A DNA stretch of 64,000 nucleotides from an uncultured Candidatus Saccharibacteria bacterium (GTDB taxonomy: Bacteria > Patescibacteriota > Dojkabacteria > SC72): assembly GCA_964403155.1 (NCBI GenBank), contig CAYOEG010000002.1:8147-72146 (forward strand). Reading direction: 5' to 3'. Both the position numbers and the translations under genes were made by a program. Under the pieces are notes generated by a model. The model had not been told where the DNA came from, did not search any database, and worked only from the letters and a program-made list of their open reading frames with translations. Of this stretch, positions 2,960 through 62,383 are shown one piece after another (the first letter of the stretch is position 1; each line of letters starts with the position of its first letter).

Positions 2960-3757
2960 ATGGAAAATCCCCAATGGAACATACAAACCGAAGACCAAAA
3001 CAAAATTAAAAAAACTAGGATATGGATATCTGCCATATTTGCAGGCATAGGGATAATCATTATAGCGAGCCAAGTAGTACCACTAGCTAAATCTTACATA
3101 GACGGATTAATAGAACAAACCAGAGCAAACTCCAAAGTAGAACCAGTACCCGAATCATACAAAACATATATAGAATCACAATTAGCCTACTATGATCCAG
3201 GCAAAAGCTACTTCGCTAATCTCACATCACAGCTAGGAGTATTAGGAGTTTCAACAGAATATTACGATGTAACCACACAAACAGAGAAAGCAATTATCAT
3301 AGACAAGGATTATGCAACAAACATGGCCATCAATATTCCAAGCATAGGAATATCAAACATCAACATAACCCCAAACGTAGATAGCTACAATGAAGAAACA
3401 TACAACAAATACCTCAAACTAGGATTAGCACATTTCAGAGGAACTCCCTTGCCAGGAGATGGAGGTAACTCCTTCATATATGGTCACAGTGCAGTAGAAA
3501 CCTTCTTCAGTACACACCAAAACCTACCAGAGACAATCTTCTCAAGATTGAGTAATATAGAGGTGGGAGAAGAAGTAGATATAACTAAGGATGAAAAAGT
3601 ACTAAAGTATATCGTAAGAAGTAAAAAGATTGTCTCCCCTGATGACTTTTCCATACTAGAATCTCAAAATGGGAAAGAAACCTTAACCATGATGACTTGT
3701 TGGCCACTTGGCATAGGAACTAAAAGATTAATAGTAATAGCTGAAAGAACAATTTAA
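2960..3757 (+). CDS. sortase (membrane-anchored transpeptidase)
   Basis: N-terminal TM anchor; catalytic His (IYGHSAVE), TLTMMTCWP catalytic Cys motif (TLxTC) and downstream Arg (GTKRLIV), in the canonical H-C-R order. Confidence 0.7.
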   Translation: MENPQWNIQTEDQNKIKKTRIWISAIFAGIGIIIIASQVVPLAKSYIDGLIEQTRANSKVEPVPESYKTYIESQLAYYDPGKSYFANLTSQLGVLGVSTEYYDVTTQTEKAIIIDKDYATNMAINIPSIGISNINITPNVDSYNEETYNKYLKLGLAHFRGTPLPGDGGNSFIYGHSAVETFFSTHQNLPETIFSRLSNIEVGEEVDITKDEKVLKYIVRSKKIVSPDDFSILESQNGKETLTMMTCWPLGIGTKRLIVIAERTI

Positions 3758-13002: not shown

Positions 13003-14754
13003 ATGGAAGAAGGAATACGAGTCACGCAAGTGAAAGCAAAATCTAAGAAACTCCAGACGGTCCTTCTTGTCATAACAGGGATTTTAGGACTTGCACTTGT
13101 CGGTACAGCAATCTATTTCTACACCATCAAAGATACCTCTTCTAATACTGACGACTCCCGTACCATAACCTGTGGCTGTTATTATATAGATCCAAAAGTT
13201 AGTACCGAGTGTGGAGATCCAAGAAGAACTTTCAAATTTGAGCTTTCTACAGGCACTAGTACTGATACATGTAAAACAACTTGCTCCACAAGCAATATCT
13301 CTACTAATGATTTAAACAGTAGCACCGAACAAGATCTCTATCAAATATGTCAACTACAAAGTATCGCAGATACAAGCTGTCAATCAATGACAATTAAAGA
13401 TAAGAATGGAAAGATTGTTACGGGCGAAGTAACTTCAGCAGACGAATTAACTATAGAGGCGACATTTGACAAAGAATACACCGATTACAAATTCATCATA
13501 AATAACGAATCTGTAGATCCAGATGTAATAACACCCAATAAGCTAACAATACAAAAGGCTATTAGTGACCTCAGCTCCTCAACTGCTATAAACATAGTTG
13601 CGACTGGTACAACAGAGGATGGGGAGCAGATAAATACCCCTATCTGTAGAAGATTAATAGAGGTAACACAATCAAGTGAAGCAAATGTTACTAATCTCCA
13701 ATTGACATCAAGGCTTGCTAGTGGCGTTACCAAAATTTCTAGCGCCAGGATCGCAACAGGAGAACTCTCCTCAACTTCAGATATATCAGTCAAATTTACA
13801 TTCAGTGATACAGTCTCTGTGCTAACAATGACCAAGGGATTCACCGTAGATAGTACCGCAGGGACAATAGAGATTATAGAGCAAGATCTATACAACACAG
13901 CAAACTTCTCCGAAGGCAGAAGTTTCTCTGATCTTGATACATACAAGAGTAGTATGACAATACAATCCGAAGTCTTCGTTTCTGCTACCTCTATTGGCAA
14001 AGCTTCCACAAGTGTAGACTTCTCAACAACCGAGGAAAAAGAAGACAATGATACAGAAACAACACTATCTAGCTTCTCTGTAACAAATAGTGCTAACCTA
14101 CAATGTGTAGAAAGAGTATCCCCTTCCAATGCAATACAGTACACGATTGTAGTAACGAACAAGAGCACTACATCACAAAAGATCACCAATATAACTGACA
14201 AATTACCTCTTGGATTTGCATATACTGCAAATAGTACAAAAATTAATAGTGTCACAATAACAGATTCTGGATATGTCGCCACAGCTAATGTCGGAGATAC
14301 ACAACAAATAGTATTTGCGAAAACAGATGGGTGGACACTAAGTGCCAATCAATCCCTTACCATAGTATTTGGAGCCACAGCCGGCTCGGAAACACTCTCT
14401 GGAGCAAATAACAACGAAGTTGTTGTTACACCGGAACAAGTTCCTGCGGATCCATCAACACTACGAACATCCAAGAACGTTACCGTTGCCCAAGACTGTG
14501 ACAATGTAACAGAAGAGGAAGAAGAAACACCTAGCACAGGGATGTTCGATAGCATAGTCGCAAAGGTTTTGATAGGTTTAATTATAGTTCTAGCAGGATG
14601 GTTCGTATACAACAAGCCACAAGGGAAGATACTTGTCGAGAAGTTTGTAGATTCTGATCTATACAAAGACACAGAACTTAACACTTGGAAAATATTCAAA
14701 CCAAAGAAATACTTCGAAGAGATTGTCGTTAGAAAAACGCAAAAGAGAAATTAA
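13003..14754 (+). CDS. Cys- and Ser/Thr-rich surface protein with DUF11-like repeat domain and C-terminal TM anchor
   Basis: N-terminal TM; Cys-rich segment (TITCGCYYIDPKVSTECGDP...TCKTTCSTS); DUF11-like block (TIVVTNKSTTSQKITNITDKLPLGFAYT); C-terminal EEEEETPSTG + hydrophobic helix + KPQGK resembling a sorting signal, followed by an extra 50-aa tail. Confidence 0.5.
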   Translation: MEEGIRVTQVKAKSKKLQTVLLVITGILGLALVGTAIYFYTIKDTSSNTDDSRTITCGCYYIDPKVSTECGDPRRTFKFELSTGTSTDTCKTTCSTSNISTNDLNSSTEQDLYQICQLQSIADTSCQSMTIKDKNGKIVTGEVTSADELTIEATFDKEYTDYKFIINNESVDPDVITPNKLTIQKAISDLSSSTAINIVATGTTEDGEQINTPICRRLIEVTQSSEANVTNLQLTSRLASGVTKISSARIATGELSSTSDISVKFTFSDTVSVLTMTKGFTVDSTAGTIEIIEQDLYNTANFSEGRSFSDLDTYKSSMTIQSEVFVSATSIGKASTSVDFSTTEEKEDNDTETTLSSFSVTNSANLQCVERVSPSNAIQYTIVVTNKSTTSQKITNITDKLPLGFAYTANSTKINSVTITDSGYVATANVGDTQQIVFAKTDGWTLSANQSLTIVFGATAGSETLSGANNNEVVVTPEQVPADPSTLRTSKNVTVAQDCDNVTEEEEETPSTGMFDSIVAKVLIGLIIVLAGWFVYNKPQGKILVEKFVDSDLYKDTELNTWKIFKPKKYFEEIVVRKTQKRN

Positions 14755-15161
14755 AGATCCGCAAGTGAGAAATCTAATGCTTTACCATTGTATCCATACG
14801 TTACCTCATCTGAATTTATGAGAAGATAATATCGTTGAGTTGTCAAAAGTTTTTCCAACTTTACCTCGTGTGTTTTTGATCTTACCTTATTAGTCTGATC
14901 CACTCCTACCATTACCAAATTATCCCTATTATCACCATACTGGACAAAACCAACACACTCCTTTTTGGTACTCCATTTAACAATCGCAGTGTATTCCTGC
15001 TCTCCTTTTTCGATAAAAATATTGTAAGGTACACAATCTCGTTTCAAAGAAGCAAAGATATTCGAACCAAAAGTATTTTTTACAAACAATAAAGAGAGGG
15101 AAAGCCCCACTATGAAAATACCAAAAAAACCTGTTATTAAAAAAATCTTAGTTCGCTTCAT
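14751..15161 (-). CDS. hypothetical membrane-anchored protein (Fn3-like beta domain?)
   Basis: N-terminal TM then about 100 aa predicted extracytoplasmic; overlaps the upstream gene by 14 nt, so likely an operon. Confidence 0.4.
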   Translation of the reverse strand: MKRTKIFLITGFFGIFIVGLSLSLLFVKNTFGSNIFASLKRDCVPYNIFIEKGEQEYTAIVKWSTKKECVGFVQYGDNRDNLVMVGVDQTNKVRSKTHEVKLEKLLTTQRYYLLINSDEVTYGYNGKALDFSLADL

Positions 15162-15564
15162 TACTCTCGATCAAAATATAACTTTCTTTTATAGACGAAT
15201 GCTCTCCATCTGATACACGAATCTTTAACTTGTACTGCCCTTCACTCCCAACAGAAGGGACTCCGTATACTTTTTTTCCATCAACAGACATCCAACTAGG
15301 AGCATTAATCAAAGTAAGTGCCAAATCCTCATCAGAAGTATCACCATCTGAGCACTCCGCAATATATGCGTACTCTTCCCCTACAACACCCACAGCTGTA
15401 GGAGAATTTACAATGTATGGGACATCTACAATGTTACTTTTCCCTAACACTGTCTCTGTATCACTAGTATCCTTGTTTCTCTCCATCAGAATAATTCCTA
15501 CTGTACCAATTATCAAAACAACAAAAACACTGAGAACAACTTTAGCTTTTCTACTAGCATCCAT
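15148..15564 (-). CDS. membrane-anchored protein with He_PIG/cadherin-like domain
   Basis: N-terminal TM; PTAVGVVGEEYAYIAECSDGDTSDEDLALTLINAPSWMSVDG matches the putative-Ig (He_PIG) consensus. Confidence 0.45.
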   Translation of the reverse strand: MDASRKAKVVLSVFVVLIIGTVGIILMERNKDTSDTETVLGKSNIVDVPYIVNSPTAVGVVGEEYAYIAECSDGDTSDEDLALTLINAPSWMSVDGKKVYGVPSVGSEGQYKLKIRVSDGEHSSIKESYILIESNEAN

Positions 15565-24537: not shown

Positions 24538-25329
24538 ATGAGACAACATCCAATACCACAAAATATATTAGATGTAGAGTTCAAACTCTTTACAAAGTTT
24601 ACACTTAAAGAATTCGCATACCTTGCCATTGGTTTAGGAATCGGAGGAGTATTGGTATACCTAATGGTAGGACACACAATTCCAGTAATAGTTGGGATCC
24701 CTGGCCTCATACTCTCTGCAGGTGCAGGAATATTCCTGGGATTAGTACCAATAAATGATCAAGATGCAGATGTATTCATAAAAAACTATGTAAATGCAAT
24801 AACTACACCAACACAAAGAGTCTGGTTAAGTAAAGAGATGCAGGAAGACAGAAACAAGCCTTCTGTAAAACCAGGTGCAGACGGGAAATTAGTACAAAAA
24901 AGCTTTAAAGATAAAGTGACCGAGATAATTGGTGGAAATAAGCAAATAGTAGTAGAAGAGACAGCTCCAACGATACCTGCAAATAATACCCCCGTATCAT
25001 TATCTGAGTTAACAATATCAGACAGTAACAGAAACAAATATGAATTTAGTATCCAGAACTTAGAAAAATTACCTGGGAATATCAATATCTGGCTCTATAC
25101 CGGAGAAATGACCCCATCCCCAAATGTCATAACCTATATGAAGGATGAGAATGGTAAAATACTCTACGCAAACAGAACAGGGAACAGTGGCTATTTCCTA
25201 ACTAACAAGATATGGCCAAAGGGGATATATCAATTAGAGTTTGTGCATCCTCAGTTCAGATTCCCAAAGGTAAAGATCATAATCGAGGAAGAAAGTCATA
25301 AATTACCGATTAAAATAAAGAACATTTAA
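24538..25329 (+). CDS. VirB3/PrgI-like two-TM membrane protein with a C-terminal extracytoplasmic domain (T4SS-like module)
   Basis: Two adjacent TM helices (FAYLAIGLGIGGVLVYLMV / IVGIPGLILSAGAGIFLGLV) at the N-terminus; immediately precedes and is translationally coupled to the VirB4-like genes. Confidence 0.45.
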   Translation: MRQHPIPQNILDVEFKLFTKFTLKEFAYLAIGLGIGGVLVYLMVGHTIPVIVGIPGLILSAGAGIFLGLVPINDQDADVFIKNYVNAITTPTQRVWLSKEMQEDRNKPSVKPGADGKLVQKSFKDKVTEIIGGNKQIVVEETAPTIPANNTPVSLSELTISDSNRNKYEFSIQNLEKLPGNINIWLYTGEMTPSPNVITYMKDENGKILYANRTGNSGYFLTNKIWPKGIYQLEFVHPQFRFPKVKIIIEEESHKLPIKIKNI

Positions 25330-25330
25330 A

Positions 25331-25981
25331 GTGGATCAAAATACAAGGGCAAGAGCTATTGCCTCAACACAAGATGCATTAGAAGTTAGAGATATCCGAG
25401 AGGATCTTGTTGTAACTAAAAGCGGAAGTGTGGCAATAGTAATTCAAACGTCCGCCATTAACTTTGACCTTCTAGCCGAGTATGAACAGGATAACAAAAT
25501 ATATGCCTTTGCAGGACTTCTAAATTCACTCAATTTCCCCATTCAAATCTTGATCCGAACAAAGCGAATAGATATCACTTCATATGTTGACTATCTTAAA
25601 TCACAAAACGAAAGAGAGATGAGCGAAGGGTTAAGAAAACAATTAGAAATCTACACCCTATTTATACAAAACCTCATCGTACAGAATGATGTCTTAGACA
25701 AAAATTTCTTCATAGTAGTACCTTACAACCCTGGGCTTACTTTAAACGATGTAGGTTTCCTAAAAAAGAACAGTAAAAAAACAAAAGAAGAGGAAGAAAA
25801 ATATCAGAACATGGAGATAGACCAATTAGTGGAGAAAGGTAAAATATACCTCTATCCTAAGAGAGATCATATACTCAAACAACTCTCAAGAATGGGATTA
25901 TTTGGTCATCAATTAAACAATACTGAATTACTTTCTGAATTCTATACAATATATAACCCCGAGGAAGAAGAAAATGCCTGA
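25331..25981 (+). CDS. VirB4 N-terminal-domain-like protein (separate ORF, translationally coupled)
   Basis: GTG start 1 nt after the upstream stop. LVVTKSGSVAIVIQTSAINFDLLAEYEQDNKIYAFAGLLNSLNFPIQILIRTKRIDI matches the N-terminal segment of Gram-positive-type VirB4 (PrgJ/TcpF/Orf16 family). Overlaps the next ORF by ATGCCTGA. Confidence 0.45.
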   Translation: MDQNTRARAIASTQDALEVRDIREDLVVTKSGSVAIVIQTSAINFDLLAEYEQDNKIYAFAGLLNSLNFPIQILIRTKRIDITSYVDYLKSQNEREMSEGLRKQLEIYTLFIQNLIVQNDVLDKNFFIVVPYNPGLTLNDVGFLKKNSKKTKEEEEKYQNMEIDQLVEKGKIYLYPKRDHILKQLSRMGLFGHQLNNTELLSEFYTIYNPEEEENA

Positions 25982-28403
25982 AGAACTAAACAACTACAAC
26001 CGAACACTTGATAGCAAAATCTCGCAAGAGCTTAAATCTCAGACTGAGAAACTACAGTCCGTCGGAGAGAAATATCAAACATTCAGACAAGAACTAAAGA
26101 AAGAGATGGAGAATGGCAAAGCGAAAGAGGAAAAAGATAAATTCAATGACCCCCTGAAAACAGATGAAGAACCAAAACCAAAGAAGAATCCAATTTTGAA
26201 GCTCCTAGATAAGCTAGCTGAAAAAATAAATGGAAAAAAATCTCTTGAAGAAACAACTACTTCGGGAAACAAGATTGAAGATGATGATATAACAATGCTG
26301 GATAAAAATATGTCCATCAAAGATATCATTGCACCACTGGATATGGAACTCGACTTTAACGACATGCAGATGGGGGACTATTTCTTCAGAGTATTTAAAG
26401 TCTCTGGTTACCCTCGTATCGTTGGACCAAATTGGTTATCACCAATTATAAATTTTGAGCATTCCTTACGTATTAGTACCTTTTACTACCCAGTTGAATC
26501 TAAAGTCATTCTCGAAAAACTTAAGCGAAAAATCGGAGAGATGGAAGCCACACTCTACTCTCAAATAGAGGATCGAAAAGTTGTAGATCCTACACTTAAA
26601 GTTGCGCTCTCTGATGCACAACAGTTGCAAGACTCAATTGCAGAAGGTTCAGAGAAATACTTCCACTACGGAATGTACATCACAATATATGCACCTAACA
26701 AGGATCTATTAGAGAAATATTCTAGAAATGTAACTTCGACCCTAGCTGCGATGAATGTGGTTGCCATACCAGCAATTTTGCAACAAAATGAAGGATTTCT
26801 GAGTACACAACCTTTGGGATTAGACAAACTATACTTCACTAGGAACATGGATACCACCTCCCTTGCCACAACCTTCCCATTCGTGACTTCAGAGTTAACA
26901 ATGGAGAAGGGAATTATGTATGGCGTAAACATGCATAACAAAAGCCTGGTCATATTTGATAGATTCCAGTTAGAGAATGCAAACACCGTAGTATTTGCAA
27001 AAGCAGGTGCAGGTAAAAGCTATTTTGTAAAACTAGAAATTCTTAGGAGTCTAATGCTGGGAACCGAGATCATCATTATAGACCCAGAAAGGGAATATGA
27101 CGAACTTTCCAAAGCAGTAAACGGACTTTACATCTCATTCTCACAGGACAAAGGAAGCAAGATGAATCCATTTGAACTCTCAGGAATTAAAGACGAGGGT
27201 GATGACGAGCTAAGAATGAAACTACTTGCATTACATGGTTTCTTCAAAATACTTTTCGGGGGACTTACTAATGTTGAAGAATCCATTTTAGACAAAGCAT
27301 TAATACTCACTTACAGAGAGAAAGGTATTACCTTTGACCCTGCAACACAGACGAAACAGCCTCCTCTACTTGAAGATATGTACAAAGTACTTAAGGGTAT
27401 GGCCGAGAATGAAGCTCATGATTTAGCCAGAAGAATGGAGAAATATATAATCGGTAGTGGTGCAGGAATATTCAACGAAGCAAGTAATTTTGAAATTAAT
27501 AATCCATTTACAGTATTCAGCATCAGAGACTTACAAGAAGAACTAAAACCTCTCGCTATGTACCTAATGCTTGATTTCATATGGACAAAAATTCGAAAAG
27601 ATCAGAAGAGGAGAATCCTTGTTGTAGATGAAGCTTGGTATATGATGCAAAGTTTGGACTCCGCAAATTTCATGTATTCAATAGCTAAACGTGCAAGAAA
27701 GTATTATCTCGGCTTAACAACAATTACTCAGGATGTCGCAGATTTCCTAAATAATGATATGGGGAAGGCGATTATATCTAACTCTTCAATGCAGGTGCTT
27801 ATGAAACAAAGCCCCTCTGCTGTAGATAAGCTACAAGCAGTATTTAATCTGTCTGATGGAGAGAAGAATTTCTTACTAAGTTGCGATAAAGGACAAGGAC
27901 TGTTCTTTGCAGGGTCAAACCATGTAGGCATACAAGTTATATCTAGCCAAGCAGAACACGAGCTTATAACCACAGATCCTAAAGAACTAGAGCAACGCCG
28001 TGCAAGGTCTGGCATGACTGAGACAAGAACCATAGAAGAATTAGCCCAGATATTTGAACCTCCAGCAGAGCAACAACCTATGAGAGATGGGAACTCCTTG
28101 GAAAGGCAACAACAGGTAATACGGGGAGCAATATACAAACGAAGAGATGATCAGGTACAGATTGAAAAAGAAAGAGAACAGTATCAAAAAGAATTAGAAG
28201 AAAGATTAAGACAACAGGAGCTTGAACTTAACCCAGAAAAGAGAATATCCCAACAAACTTTTCTTGATAGTTTAAAAGAGAATACTGTTTCTGGGCAAGT
28301 TATAAAATCAAGGGAAGATATACAAAAGGGTCGAACACATATAACTCCACAAGGCCCAGTTTCAAGCTATACAAATAATGGGACAGGCAACAACCAACAA
28401 TAA
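25974..28403 (+). CDS. VirB4/TraC/TrbE-family T4SS ATPase
   Basis: Walker A AKAGAGKSYFV, Walker B RILVVDEAWYM, conserved N-domain segment YFFRVFKVSGYPRIVGPNWLSPI; a KE-rich low-complexity insert of about 110 aa at the N-terminus; 809 aa. Confidence 0.8.
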   Translation: MPEELNNYNRTLDSKISQELKSQTEKLQSVGEKYQTFRQELKKEMENGKAKEEKDKFNDPLKTDEEPKPKKNPILKLLDKLAEKINGKKSLEETTTSGNKIEDDDITMLDKNMSIKDIIAPLDMELDFNDMQMGDYFFRVFKVSGYPRIVGPNWLSPIINFEHSLRISTFYYPVESKVILEKLKRKIGEMEATLYSQIEDRKVVDPTLKVALSDAQQLQDSIAEGSEKYFHYGMYITIYAPNKDLLEKYSRNVTSTLAAMNVVAIPAILQQNEGFLSTQPLGLDKLYFTRNMDTTSLATTFPFVTSELTMEKGIMYGVNMHNKSLVIFDRFQLENANTVVFAKAGAGKSYFVKLEILRSLMLGTEIIIIDPEREYDELSKAVNGLYISFSQDKGSKMNPFELSGIKDEGDDELRMKLLALHGFFKILFGGLTNVEESILDKALILTYREKGITFDPATQTKQPPLLEDMYKVLKGMAENEAHDLARRMEKYIIGSGAGIFNEASNFEINNPFTVFSIRDLQEELKPLAMYLMLDFIWTKIRKDQKRRILVVDEAWYMMQSLDSANFMYSIAKRARKYYLGLTTITQDVADFLNNDMGKAIISNSSMQVLMKQSPSAVDKLQAVFNLSDGEKNFLLSCDKGQGLFFAGSNHVGIQVISSQAEHELITTDPKELEQRRARSGMTETRTIEELAQIFEPPAEQQPMRDGNSLERQQQVIRGAIYKRRDDQVQIEKEREQYQKELEERLRQQELELNPEKRISQQTFLDSLKENTVSGQVIKSREDIQKGRTHITPQGPVSSYTNNGTGNNQQ

Positions 28404-28616
28404 CAATTTAAATCTATTAGAAGAATCAAACTACTTGGTTACAAAAGCAGTTTCAACTTCTAGTATCCCTCAACAAAGAGTCTCTTCTGATTTAGAAATG
28501 TTAGAGAAAGCCGAGAAGAAAAGTCTGTATAGAGCTAACATAGCAAAAGGTAAAAAAGACCCACAGGTATATATTGCACTTAGTGCATTAAGACTTTCTA
28601 ATCCATTTAAAGGATA

Positions 28617-29795
28617 CTAACTCAATGGACCCTGATCTTGTGGAAGATAATGCTTTAAATTATCCGCCGTTATAATTATTGGAAGCGTTGCTCCCTCTAC
28701 AACATCTCTAGCAACAGCTCTAACCATACCTGCGATATTACGTTCCAACTGCCTAATACCAGCGTCAAAACCTACAGGACGAATAATCATTGGCCAGATC
28801 GTATCATCAATTCTAATAAGTTCTTCTGAAAGATTAAGCCCCTTAAGAACCCTTGGAAATATATATCTCTTCGCAATAACCGTCTTCTCCTCATCTGTAT
28901 AACTAGTAAATCTAATCACCTCCACCCTATCCAATAAAGCCGCAGAAAGACCCCCAAGATTATTTGCTGTACATATGAAGAAAATATTAGAGAGATCAAC
29001 TGGGAAATCTAAATAATGATCCCGGAATGCTCTGTTTTGTTCAGGATCAAGGATTTCTAATAATGCTGCCATAACATCATTAAGTAATCCCGCATTACCA
29101 CTTGCTTTTTCAATTTCATCAAGAAGAACAACTGGGTTCATAGTCCCACTTCTCATCAATGCCTTAATAATTTGCCCAGGCTCCGGATCCACAGCATAAC
29201 GAGGAGTACCACGCAAAGTTCTTACGTCCCCTATTGCACCAAGGGAGATTCTTACAAATTTTCTTCCCATGGCTTGTGCAATAGATTTGGCAATGGAAGT
29301 CTTACCCACACCCTGAAGTCCTACAAAAAGAAATACTGGTGATTTAGAGAAATTATTTTGTGAGGGTATTATCATTTCCGGTCTTTCCGATAAAGAACCA
29401 ACCGAAGAAGGCATAGCAACATATTGATTGAGATTCTGCCTACTCTCGAGCTGCATCGCTGCAAGATAGTCAAGAATAGCGTTCTTAATACCATCCATAC
29501 CATAATGAGTAGAATCCATTATCTCCTTAGCATTCTTAATATCAAGATTGTCCTTGGATAACACTCCCCAAGGAATAGAAACTACGTAATTTACATATTT
29601 GCTTACATTCTCATACTCTGAGCTATACACTCCCTTCTTTGCTATCCTTTCTAATCTCTCAATACTCGAAAGAACTTCATTTTTGAGATCAATCGGGGCA
29701 TTAGAATTTACAAGCTTGTTCTTAAGTAACAAGATGTCTGAGACATTATCATCCATAGTAATATCTTGTGGTATGGGCGTATTAATATAATCCAT
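28617..29795 (-). CDS. Lon-like AAA+ ATPase module lacking the N-terminal substrate domain and the C-terminal protease domain
   Basis: Near-canonical Lon AAA+ sequence: LFVGLQGVGKTSIAKSIAQAMGRKFVRISLG, LLDEIEKAS, LEILDPEQNRAFRDHYLDFPVDLS, TANNLGGLSAALLDRVEVIRFTSYTDEEK. It ends at ITADNLKHYLPQDQ, exactly where Lon proteins begin the protease domain. No Ser-Lys protease domain adjacent. Confidence 0.75.
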   Translation of the reverse strand: MDYINTPIPQDITMDDNVSDILLLKNKLVNSNAPIDLKNEVLSSIERLERIAKKGVYSSEYENVSKYVNYVVSIPWGVLSKDNLDIKNAKEIMDSTHYGMDGIKNAILDYLAAMQLESRQNLNQYVAMPSSVGSLSERPEMIIPSQNNFSKSPVFLFVGLQGVGKTSIAKSIAQAMGRKFVRISLGAIGDVRTLRGTPRYAVDPEPGQIIKALMRSGTMNPVVLLDEIEKASGNAGLLNDVMAALLEILDPEQNRAFRDHYLDFPVDLSNIFFICTANNLGGLSAALLDRVEVIRFTSYTDEEKTVIAKRYIFPRVLKGLNLSEELIRIDDTIWPMIIRPVGFDAGIRQLERNIAGMVRAVARDVVEGATLPIIITADNLKHYLPQDQGPLS

Positions 29796-60136: not shown

Positions 60137-62383
60137 ATGCCCAGGAAAAAGAAAAAAGAGCCAATCACAATCAAAAGTAACGAACTAAAAATCTTGTTCG
60201 GGATTGTATTGTTTGTACTTGGAATTACAATCACATTAGCACCATTCATACCACAAGATTCGGTGCTTTTTGACACTATCACTTTACAATTAGGATATTC
60301 TGCTATCTCTTGGGGACTTTTACTCATATACATATCATTCTTTTTGCTTACCAAAGGAAAGAGGTTTAAATCTCTTAGACAAGTAATCGGGCTGTTATTA
60401 TTCTCAGCATGTCTCAGTACATTGCTTTCATTCTGGCAGACTCCAGAACAACTTGGTAGTAGTGAAGCTCTTCGAGGAGCCGGAGGAGAGATTGGGAAAT
60501 TCTTCCATATGACTCTAAATGGGACATTTGGGAATTTGATAGAGATAATAATAGTATTAGTACTTCTAGTGGTAGCATTCTCCTTGATTACTGGAACTAC
60601 ACTTGAGCAGATAATGGAATTCGTAGAGTCCCCAATGAAAAAAGATGGCGAAAAAGAGAAATTTAGCCTAGGAGGATTATTCTCTGGTATCAAGATTCAG
60701 GGTGGAGAAGACGGAGAGAAAGAAGCAAGACTTACAGTCCCTATGGAAGAATTAGGTAAAGAACCAGAGATTAGAATGTACGGAGAAGATAGTAAGAAAG
60801 ATGAGGATGTATACCAAGAGCCACAGATCAAGACTGTAAATGAGGATAATTTTCCCGAGAATATTCCTGATGACCAAACCAGGGCAGATGAACTTGGGGA
60901 ACCTTCAAGACCAAAATACACTAATTGGACATTCCCAAACATTGACTTACTACAAGAAGGCGAGGTTCGAAAACAAGACGAGAAACTTTACAGAACTAAA
61001 GCGGAAGTTATTCAGAGCACACTTAAGAACTTTGGAATAGAGGCAAAGGTTGTAGAAATTGCTGTAGGACCAACTGTTTTAAGATTCTCTCTAGCTATTA
61101 CAGTTGGAACAAAAGTATCTAGAATTAAAAATCTTAGCAATGATTTAGCCTTAGCATTGGCATCCCAGACATCTTCAGTAAGGGTTGAGGCCCCTATTCC
61201 GGGAACATCATATGTCGGCGTTGAGATTCCAAATCCAATTCCTAACTATGTGTATACAAGAGATATGGTAAAGAAATTAAGACAAGAAGCAGAAAGATAT
61301 GAACTACCTTTGATACTAGGAAAAGATATCACTGGGAAGACAGCAATTCGAGATCTTAACAAGATTCCACATCTGTTAGTAGCAGGAGCAACAGGTACTG
61401 GAAAATCTGTAGCTATAAACTCCTTGATATTAGGCCTTTTGATGACAAAAACTCCTGACGAAGTTAAATTCATAATGATCGATCCTAAGATGGGTGTTGA
61501 GATGGCTGCATACAATGGTATCCCTCATCTCCTAACCCCAGTTATCACTGATATGGAACTTGTTGTTAATGCTCTTCAGTGGGTTATTAACGAAATGATG
61601 AAGAGATACAGACAACTCAAACAGATGCATGTTAAGAAATTAACAGAATACAACAAGGCACTTGGATATACTGCCATGCCATACGTTGTAGTCGTCATCG
61701 ATGAAATGGCAGATCTAATGCTCACATCTGGAGTTGATGTTGAAGGTAAAATTCAAAGACTTGCCCAGATGGGTAGAGCCGTTGGTATACATCTGATTCT
61801 TGCTACACAAAGACCTACTGTAAACGTAATCACAGGATTAATCAAAGCGAATGTCCCAGGAAGAATGGCGTTTGCAGTTGCTACAGCTATGGACTCAAGA
61901 GTTATTTTGGACGATACTGGTGCAGAAACACTTCTTGGTAATGGTGATATGTTGTTTAAAGACCAAAGCACTCCAAAAGCAATTAGAATCCAAGGCACAT
62001 TTACGTCAACAGAAGATAGTGAAAATATCATTAATGCAATCAAGGAACAAGTCGCAGAAGAAGAAGTTGAATATTCAGAAGATCTTCTCAATGCCATTGA
62101 GAAAGGTAGCAATGACAGTACAGGAGTAAACAAGGGAGGTTCTGAAAGAGATCCAGATTTCCCATTAGCTCTAGAAATTGTCATATCGAATCAGAAAGCA
62201 TCTTCCTCATTCCTTCAAAGAAAGATGAAAATCGGTTACAACAAGGCAGCAAGATTAATAGATGAGCTTTATGAAGCAGGTGCTATTGGCCCTCAAGATG
62301 GTAGCAAACCAAGACAAGTATTGGTATCTTCTCCCAATCAAATATTAAAAACTGGCGATGATGGTGACGTACAGAGTGAATAA
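60137..62383 (+). CDS. ftsK: DNA translocase FtsK/SpoIIIE
   Basis: N-terminal 4-TM domain, linker, motor domain with Walker A AGATGTGKS, C-terminal gamma (KOPS-binding) winged helix LQRKMKIGYNKAARLIDEL. Confidence 0.9.
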   Translation: MPRKKKKEPITIKSNELKILFGIVLFVLGITITLAPFIPQDSVLFDTITLQLGYSAISWGLLLIYISFFLLTKGKRFKSLRQVIGLLLFSACLSTLLSFWQTPEQLGSSEALRGAGGEIGKFFHMTLNGTFGNLIEIIIVLVLLVVAFSLITGTTLEQIMEFVESPMKKDGEKEKFSLGGLFSGIKIQGGEDGEKEARLTVPMEELGKEPEIRMYGEDSKKDEDVYQEPQIKTVNEDNFPENIPDDQTRADELGEPSRPKYTNWTFPNIDLLQEGEVRKQDEKLYRTKAEVIQSTLKNFGIEAKVVEIAVGPTVLRFSLAITVGTKVSRIKNLSNDLALALASQTSSVRVEAPIPGTSYVGVEIPNPIPNYVYTRDMVKKLRQEAERYELPLILGKDITGKTAIRDLNKIPHLLVAGATGTGKSVAINSLILGLLMTKTPDEVKFIMIDPKMGVEMAAYNGIPHLLTPVITDMELVVNALQWVINEMMKRYRQLKQMHVKKLTEYNKALGYTAMPYVVVVIDEMADLMLTSGVDVEGKIQRLAQMGRAVGIHLILATQRPTVNVITGLIKANVPGRMAFAVATAMDSRVILDDTGAETLLGNGDMLFKDQSTPKAIRIQGTFTSTEDSENIINAIKEQVAEEEVEYSEDLLNAIEKGSNDSTGVNKGGSERDPDFPLALEIVISNQKASSSFLQRKMKIGYNKAARLIDELYEAGAIGPQDGSKPRQVLVSSPNQILKTGDDGDVQSE

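Follow-up and report, generated by a model that had tools for sequence, protein, structure and literature searches.

Why is the VirB4 ATPase of a Dojkabacteria (WS6) bacterium encoded without the first part of its N-terminal domain, immediately downstream of a small open reading frame (ORF) that resembles the missing piece? We examined this question in a 64-kb window, i.e. the whole stretch of DNA that was analysed, within which all coordinates below are given (1-based). Three tightly packed plus-strand ORFs encode a PrgI/VirB3-like protein, a 216-residue protein (ORF216) and an 809-residue VirB4-family ATPase (ORF809). We identify ORF216 as the detached N-terminal module of VirB4, that is, the first subdomain of its N-domain, and the split between ORF216 and ORF809 as genuine rather than a sequencing error. 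The genes probably represent (at a probability of roughly 0.85) the cytoplasmic-membrane energising core of a chromosomal, conjugation-derived (MPF_FATA-like) type IV secretion system (T4SS) of Dojkabacteria. The features of the locus are listed here, with relatives' loci designated L003 to L009 and relatives' proteins designated by P numbers.

24538-25329, plus strand: PrgI/VirB3-like inner-membrane protein, 263 residues, ATG start (PF12666 PrgI match, homologues)
24610-24753, plus strand: transmembrane (TM) hairpin of the PrgI-like protein, residues 25-72 (hydropathy, AlphaFold2 helices)
25003-25326, plus strand: transthyretin/CarboxypepD_reg-like β-sandwich, residues 156-263 of the PrgI-like protein (AlphaFold2, Foldseek, alignment)
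25331-25981, plus strand: TraC-like/TrsD-like protein ORF216, 216 residues, GTG start; detached VirB4 N-terminal module (profiles, fold, fusion alignment)
25961-25981, plus strand: coupling junction, with a Shine-Dalgarno-like GAGGAAGAAGAAA and the ATGCCTGA stop/start overlap (sequence)
25974-28403, plus strand: VirB4-family ATPase ORF809, 809 residues, ATG start, without the first ~166 profile positions (NCBIfam, Pfam, Protein Data Bank (PDB))
25974-26327, plus strand: lysine/glutamate (K/E)-rich N-terminal leader of ORF809, residues 1-118 (composition, alignment to P0252 and L004)
27006-27020, plus strand: Walker A GAGKS, ORF809 residues 345-349 (motif)
27621-27638, plus strand: Walker B VVDEAW, ORF809 residues 550-555 (motif)
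27969-28400, plus strand: Q/E/R-rich C-terminal tail of ORF809, residues ~666-809 (conserved in the L004 orthologue)
28378-28620, plus strand: conserved 80-residue ORF, probably the fourth operon gene (positional match in L003, L004 and L005)

The PrgI-like gene and ORF216 are joined by TAA-A-GTG, with a spacer of 1 nucleotide (nt), and ORF216 and ORF809 by an 8-nt overlap (GAA AAT GCC TGA over ATG CCT GAA), which the purine run GAGGAAGAAGAAA precedes. An earlier note, made from the sequence alone, had described three tightly coupled plus-strand genes with a 1-nt spacer and then an overlap, and this is the arrangement that we found. The hidden Markov model searches that it had proposed for the three proteins placed the PrgI-like protein and the VirB4 above their cut-offs, and the TrsD/TraD match of ORF216 beneath its own.

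Fold, profile comparison, natural fusion and the alternation of fused and split forms provide four independent lines of evidence that agree, and for this reason we identify ORF216 as the VirB4 N-terminal module, bearing out the resemblance suggested previously. At the profile level, residues 14-130 of ORF216 matched the NCBIfam TrsD/TraD family NF041427 (E 1.8e-7, 31.2 bits), and the protein also matched positions 102-267 of 894 in VirB4_plasma, the VirB4 of mycoplasma integrative and conjugative elements (E 8.2e-6). The family profile of ORF216 aligned end to end with staphylococcal TrsD (hhalign, 96% probability, E 4e-9, 182 columns), indicating full-length homology to a bona fide TrsD, and the gene order agrees, with the TraC-like gene sitting between the VirB3-like gene and virB4. 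A copy of Pfam that appears to lack PF26593 returned nothing for ORF216 or for the fused relative P0252; PF26593 ('TraC-like') is precomputed on homologues of ORF216 of up to 98% identity, and on syntenic orthologues.

Neither the sequence nor the family profile of ORF216 found anything meaningful among PDB sequences, the link to VirB4 there coming from the fold search only. With an AlphaFold2 model built from 26 diverse homologues (predicted local distance difference test score, pLDDT, 82.7), the top 11 PDB matches, including all four at E<=0.001, were chains of R388 TrwK/VirB4, at a Foldseek probability of ~1.0 over ~183 aligned columns.

The natural fusion is P0252, a protein of 787 residues from a Microgenomatia-type Patescibacterium, whose gene has an extended PrgI gene upstream on contigs from different samples. 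ORF216 is 40% identical to its residues 8-205, and residues 119-678 of ORF809 are 58% identical to its residues 213-778; the two alignments are colinear without overlap, and an F-type TraC N-domain profile spans the equivalent of the ORF216/ORF809 junction. Among the 120 clusters closest to P0252, the N-module is fused in 43 and absent from 77, with fused and split VirB4s 78-88% identical in their shared part, and in a split relative from Amesbacteria a TraC-like ORF lies directly upstream of VirB4. The natural fusions are clear evidence that TrsD-like proteins are a detachable first subdomain of VirB4.

ORF809 matched the NCBIfam VirB4 family NF045971 conju_CD1110 (E 1e-113; 381.1 bits versus a cut-off of 325) over profile positions 167-735 of 752. 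Its match begins at position 167, and the complete N-domain is thus not found on this one polypeptide. As judged by homology to VirB4_plasma 102-267 and to P0252, the missing N-part is supplied by ORF216. Further matches of ORF809 were to P-loop_TraG, AAA_10, DUF87 and part of CagE_TrbE_VirB in Pfam, and to the VirB4 C-domain of PDB 4AG5 (4.3e-48). Both Walker motifs are intact, as the earlier note had seen, and the K/E-rich head that it put at 110 residues was redefined as a leader of residues 1-118 (19% K, 14% E), which is unaligned to and absent from the fused P0252 and partly conserved in L004. No profile match reaches the C-terminal tail of ~140 residues, but the tail is well aligned in the orthologue of L004; this conserved tail and the fourth ORF at 28378-28620 go beyond what had been described. 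All the close homologues come from Dojkabacteria/WS6 or other Patescibacteria metagenome-assembled genomes (MAGs). Some Microgenomatia VirB4s are 1,158-1,215 residues long and contain the intein/homing-endonuclease domains PF14528 and PF14890 (P0428, P0429, P0432, P0438, P0439, P0480, P0482, P0491 and P0507).

The first protein of the set matched Pfam PF12666 PrgI with residues 5-95 (29.4 bits versus a cut-off of 27; profile positions 1-90 of 91). Together with its two hydrophobic helices (25-49 and 51-72 by hydropathy, 23-44 and 50-69 in the AlphaFold2 model), this score above the gathering threshold identifies it as a PrgI protein with a two-TM hairpin. We identified 434 homologues, the best 120 of which span 262-291 residues and occur in Dojkabacteria, and one homologue carries the name 'PrgI family protein'. 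The C-terminal domain of roughly 180 residues that had been proposed for it resolves into a poorly modelled linker of variable length (pLDDT <50, residues 120-154) and a confident β-sandwich of the last ~108 residues (pLDDT ~90 over 160-263), conserved in alignments across Dojkabacteria PrgI-like proteins. The β-sandwich matched transthyretin, carboxypeptidase D regulatory and CnaB domains in the PDB (Foldseek, E ~1e-4), and the protein has a weak match to EMC7_beta-sandw. Given the two TM helices and the topology of VirB3, we infer that this domain would face the cytoplasm. A β-sandwich after a disordered linker was also identified on PrgI-like proteins of other Patescibacteria (L006 6659-7480, L008 3-689, L009 5005-5337). 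In L009 the domain lies on a 110-residue CarboxypepD_reg ORF, which we rejected as a true split since the break falls within a C-rich proline linker and the upstream frame stays open; it may be an assembly frameshift.

The 80-residue ORF is hydrophilic, overlaps the 3' end of virB4 by 26 nt and has no Pfam or other family match. Gene calls in L003, L004 and L005 put it at the equivalent position, and its protein sequence is conserved in Dojkabacteria (L003, L004); it is probably the operon's fourth gene.

The arrangement is a known one. In a survey of 3,035 Patescibacteria genomes (Quiñonero-Coronel et al. 2025, PMC12102498), the VirB4s of the phylum form a phylum-specific clade nested in MPF_FATA, and Dojkabacteria are included and scored VirB4-positive in the survey dataset. 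In the same survey TrsD is a remote homologue of the N-terminus of VirB4 and outnumbers every other T4SS component found in Patescibacteria (2,272 copies, 1,664 of them adjoining virB4), PrgI/VirB3 usually adjoins virB4, and the VirB3-like, TrsD and VirB4 genes are described as the common arrangement, usually chromosomal and without a relaxase; relaxases are almost absent from the phylum. The locus shares these properties (a chromosomal setting, TrsD and PrgI/VirB3 homologues with VirB4, and no relaxase nearby), and is an accurate, already known instance of the published VirB3/PrgI-TrsD-VirB4 core, to which it adds supporting detail only. Three minor details are apparently undescribed: the transthyretin-like β-sandwich of PrgI, the conserved 80-residue ORF and the frequency with which relatives switch between a fused and a split VirB4. 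The survey makes no mention of a β-sandwich on PrgI or of the 80-residue ORF (PMC12102498).

The same order and tight coupling occur in TrsC-TrsD-TrsE of staphylococcal conjugative plasmids of the pGO1/pSK41 type (MPF_FATA, pGO1 subclass), with a VirB3-like two-TM protein, a TrsD of ~227 residues and a short VirB4 of 670 residues; outside the Candidate Phyla Radiation (CPR), we found the three-gene order on these pSK41/pGO1-type plasmids and on a Pontibacillus megaplasmid. The staphylococcal system differs, however, in being plasmid-borne with a relaxase, a type IV coupling protein (T4CP) and further Trs genes, at ~22% identity, and its TrsC lacks the β-sandwich, while TrsE lacks the long leader and tail. 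Because the order is common both in Patescibacteria and on staphylococcal plasmids, the locus is neither new nor atypical in its proper reference group: the description of the split as atypical holds only against textbook Gram-negative T4SSs, the split being standard in Patescibacteria and in Gram-positive systems of the pGO1/pSK41 type. The R388 inner-membrane complex TrwM/VirB3-TrwK/VirB4 (PDB 7O41, 8RTB) resembles the locus in the fold shared by ORF216 and TrwK and in a homologous ATPase core, whereas TrwK is a single chain of 823 residues, 10-13% identical to ORF216, and belongs to a diderm machine that has an outer-membrane core. The Microgenomatia/Amesbacteria fused TraC-like-VirB4 (P0252), colinear with the two Dojkabacteria proteins, also follows an extended PrgI-like gene with a β-sandwich, but is one polypeptide without the 118-residue leader, and its gene adjoins dnaA/dnaN and has a Peptidase_M23 gene downstream.

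A T4SS cluster is essential for the epibiotic growth of Candidatus (Ca.) Southlakia (Wang et al. 2023, PMC10633639), as a 2025 review restates (PMC12857230). The cluster of Ca. Southlakia epibionticum (SEML1_0006-0019) differs from ours in adding VirB6, an array of VirB2-like pilins and peptidoglycan hydrolases, none of which is in the window. No T4SS other than that of Patescibacteria is known to be essential for the cell that carries it, and the Patescibacteria system may be the conduit by which material is taken from the host.

We propose that the three genes, probably four with the 80-residue ORF, form one operon, as their spacing suggests. The stop/start overlap and the putative internal purine-rich ribosome-binding site, which falls in the codons for the conserved C-terminal ...YNPEEE of ORF216, would couple translation, so that the pieces are made together. 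The helical hairpin of the PrgI/VirB3-like protein would then anchor the ORF216-ORF809 unit in the membrane. In this unit ORF216 would be the first N-terminal subdomain of VirB4, made as a separate polypeptide, while ORF809 would contribute the remaining N-domain (the part matched by CagE_TrbE_VirB) together with the hexameric, RecA-like ATPase. By analogy with R388, in which VirB3 wraps the VirB4 N-terminal domain (PMC9259494), the three proteins may assemble as one VirB3-VirB4 protomer. Homology suggests that the reconstituted protomer would hexamerise and hydrolyse ATP, and the VirB3-VirB4 unit would power T4SS assembly and transport, the other parts (VirB6, VirB2-like pilins) presumably being encoded elsewhere or too divergent to recognise.

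Four points weigh against this proposal. Firstly, ORF216 scores far under the curated cut-off of NF041427 (31.2 versus 200 bits), making it a distant relative rather than a member of that family. Secondly, the TM-score to TrwK is modest (~0.4, query-normalised), and Foldseek gave no TrwK residue range. Thirdly, we infer the contact of ORF216 with ORF809 and PrgI only from R388. Finally, neither Pfam searches nor a scan for small multi-TM ORFs identified VirB6, VirB8, VirB1, T4CP, relaxase or pilin-like genes in the window, as the earlier note had remarked for VirB6, VirD4, relaxase and pilin, and the sole FtsK is the chromosomal FtsK at 60137-62383; with VirB6, VirB8, VirB1, pilin and T4CP missing from the window, a complete machine is not demonstrated for the genome. 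The expected association of VirB6 and VirB2-like pilins with virB4 was likewise not found within the window, although the survey finds these proteins only in subsets of Patescibacteria genomes (PMC12102498).

We considered it unlikely that ORF216 is an independent accessory (a substrate adaptor, chaperone or regulator, for instance) that is related to the VirB4 N-terminus by ancestry without structurally completing ORF809. Such a role would suit a TrsD without assigned function, the Gracilibacteria TrsD genes that mostly lie away from virB4 (PMC12102498), and the disordered tails of 100-500 residues with LPP[IL][AP]EI in many relatives, which suggest extra interactions. However, the alternation of fused and split forms among VirB4s of 78-88% identity is explained most simply by a module with one and the same position in the two forms, and the profile positions missing from ORF809 are precisely those covered by ORF216-like sequences.

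It is similarly doubtful that Dojkabacteria operate a pared-down VirB4 machine, consisting of the extended PrgI, the TraC-like N-module, a VirB4 whose head and tail are specific to the lineage, and the 80-residue protein, with no VirB6 or pilins. If this were true, the β-sandwich and the 80-residue protein would be new lineage-specific parts, for example for substrate or partner docking. We regard as very unlikely the related suggestion that PrgI, the TraC-like protein and VirB4 (with or without the 80-residue protein) are a self-sufficient minimal translocase, such as an archaeal Ced-like system for nucleic-acid import without VirB6 or pili. In its favour, no further T4SS-like gene occurs from -24 to +36 kb, there is a weak match to CedB (1.8e-14; 53 bits versus a cut-off of 700), and Patescibacteria depend on host nucleotides (10.64898/2026.06.21.733656). 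Against this, T4SS genes are often dispersed in the phylum, with VirB6 and pilins divergent and hard to detect (PMC12102498), and the window shows part of a genome; the operon has no channel-forming polytopic protein; and the essentiality of the Southlakia T4SS is independent of ComEC-mediated DNA uptake (2025 review, PMC12857230). Of the earlier suggestion of a conjugation-derived or minimal DNA-uptake machine, the first part stands with the MPF_FATA-like VirB4, while nothing here shows the self-sufficiency that the second would entail.

That the locus is a decaying, non-working remnant of an integrated conjugative element is highly improbable. The lack of a nearby relaxase, T4CP, VirB6 or pilin gene could be taken in its favour, as could the conjugative plasmids that carry the closest relatives outside the CPR (of 462 plasmid matches, 366 are typed conjugative). 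However, the intact Walker A and B motifs, the strong protein conservation, the housekeeping synteny kept across divergent Dojkabacteria and the essential homologous system of Ca. Southlakia all argue otherwise, and the surroundings show no mark of integration: no integrase flanks the locus or occurs elsewhere in the window, no tRNA genes were found in the window, and the AT-rich composition (33-39% GC) is even throughout.

Finally, an artefact or pseudogene, in which a sequencing or assembly frameshift near 25975 broke a single virB4, might have been suspected from the different frames of the overlapping ORFs and from the fused versions in other lineages, but is already effectively refuted by the conservation of the split in independent species genomes, by the separate ATG of ORF809, which follows a purine run of Shine-Dalgarno type, by its leader of 118 residues, absent from the fusions, and by the same split on cultured staphylococcal plasmids.

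This conservation was extensive. A word-indexed search returned 1,156 stand-alone homologues of ORF216, counted as clusters, from many samples and assemblers, the best 120 of which are all stand-alone proteins of 210-226 residues. A scan of species-representative genomes found 72 loci, nearly all in Dojkabacteria/WS6 MAGs, and junctions were counted in the 63 whose DNA extended far enough. A stop closes the small ORF in 63/63 of these Dojkabacteria species genomes, virB4 starts between -86 and +19 nt of that stop, and its ORF is mostly ~790-830 residues where complete. At least 16 different spacings occur at the junction, the commonest being TAATG (-1; 23/63 loci), followed by the 8-nt overlap (10/63), and GAGGA/GAAGA-type purine runs are found at the same position before virB4 in most of the genomes. 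In 62 of the 63, virB4 is in another frame than the small ORF, with an offset of +1 in some and -1 in others, and we therefore rejected programmed frameshifting to a fusion product. Thus, the overlap is a genuine junction of probably coupled genes rather than a frameshift, as had been supposed from its appearance. The order of PrgI, TraC-like protein, VirB4, small ORF and a convergent AAA/Lon-lid gene is kept in L003, L004 and L005, and the block is set among LepA, RecF, SHMT and FolD even where the PrgI of the relatives is only 59% identical.

An exhaustive search of representatives identified 1,678 TraC-like relatives, in which the domain is always N-terminal. In other Patescibacteria, the TraC-like/TrsD-like proteins often have Q/P/S/T-rich disordered tails of 100-500 residues, many of which end in a conserved LPP[IL][AP]EI[TKE] motif (P0139, P0216, P0226, P0176 and many others; L008 725-2842) that may be a docking peptide. 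We rejected the possibility that the LPPIAEIT tail is a displaced 'DIIAP' start of the second VirB4 subdomain, since the downstream VirB4 of L008 retains its own DIIAPEAIEVDF. Because the flexible segment heads ORF809 here and elsewhere forms the tail of the TraC-like protein, the split point lies at a flexible linker able to belong to either gene.

The T4SS core adjoins dnaA/dnaN in the fused-VirB4 lineage (L006 13515-16142) and in L008 (5130-6689), in agreement with the published note that T4SS genes of Patescibacteria are often located close to the origin. The annotated genes of the window did not include dnaA.

The operon is surrounded by housekeeping genes, namely those for LepA, a RecF-like protein, aminoacyl-tRNA synthetases, SufS, dCTP deaminase, SHMT, FolD, GroEL, DnaK/GrpE/HrcA, MurJ, FtsK, a sortase (2960-3757) and DnaJ. 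Promoter and terminator scans gave fewer matches than in shuffled sequence. Directly downstream of the operon, and convergent with it, lies a gene for an AAA+ ATPase with a Lon-lid domain (28617-29795, minus strand), which is syntenic in L003, L004 and L005. A cluster of predicted surface proteins at 13003-15564, kept in L003 and L004, comprises an S/T-rich protein of 583 residues with N- and C-terminal TM segments and two N-anchored proteins of ~137 residues, the L004 counterpart of which has a faint He_PIG match; these surface proteins are possible adhesins of an epibiont.

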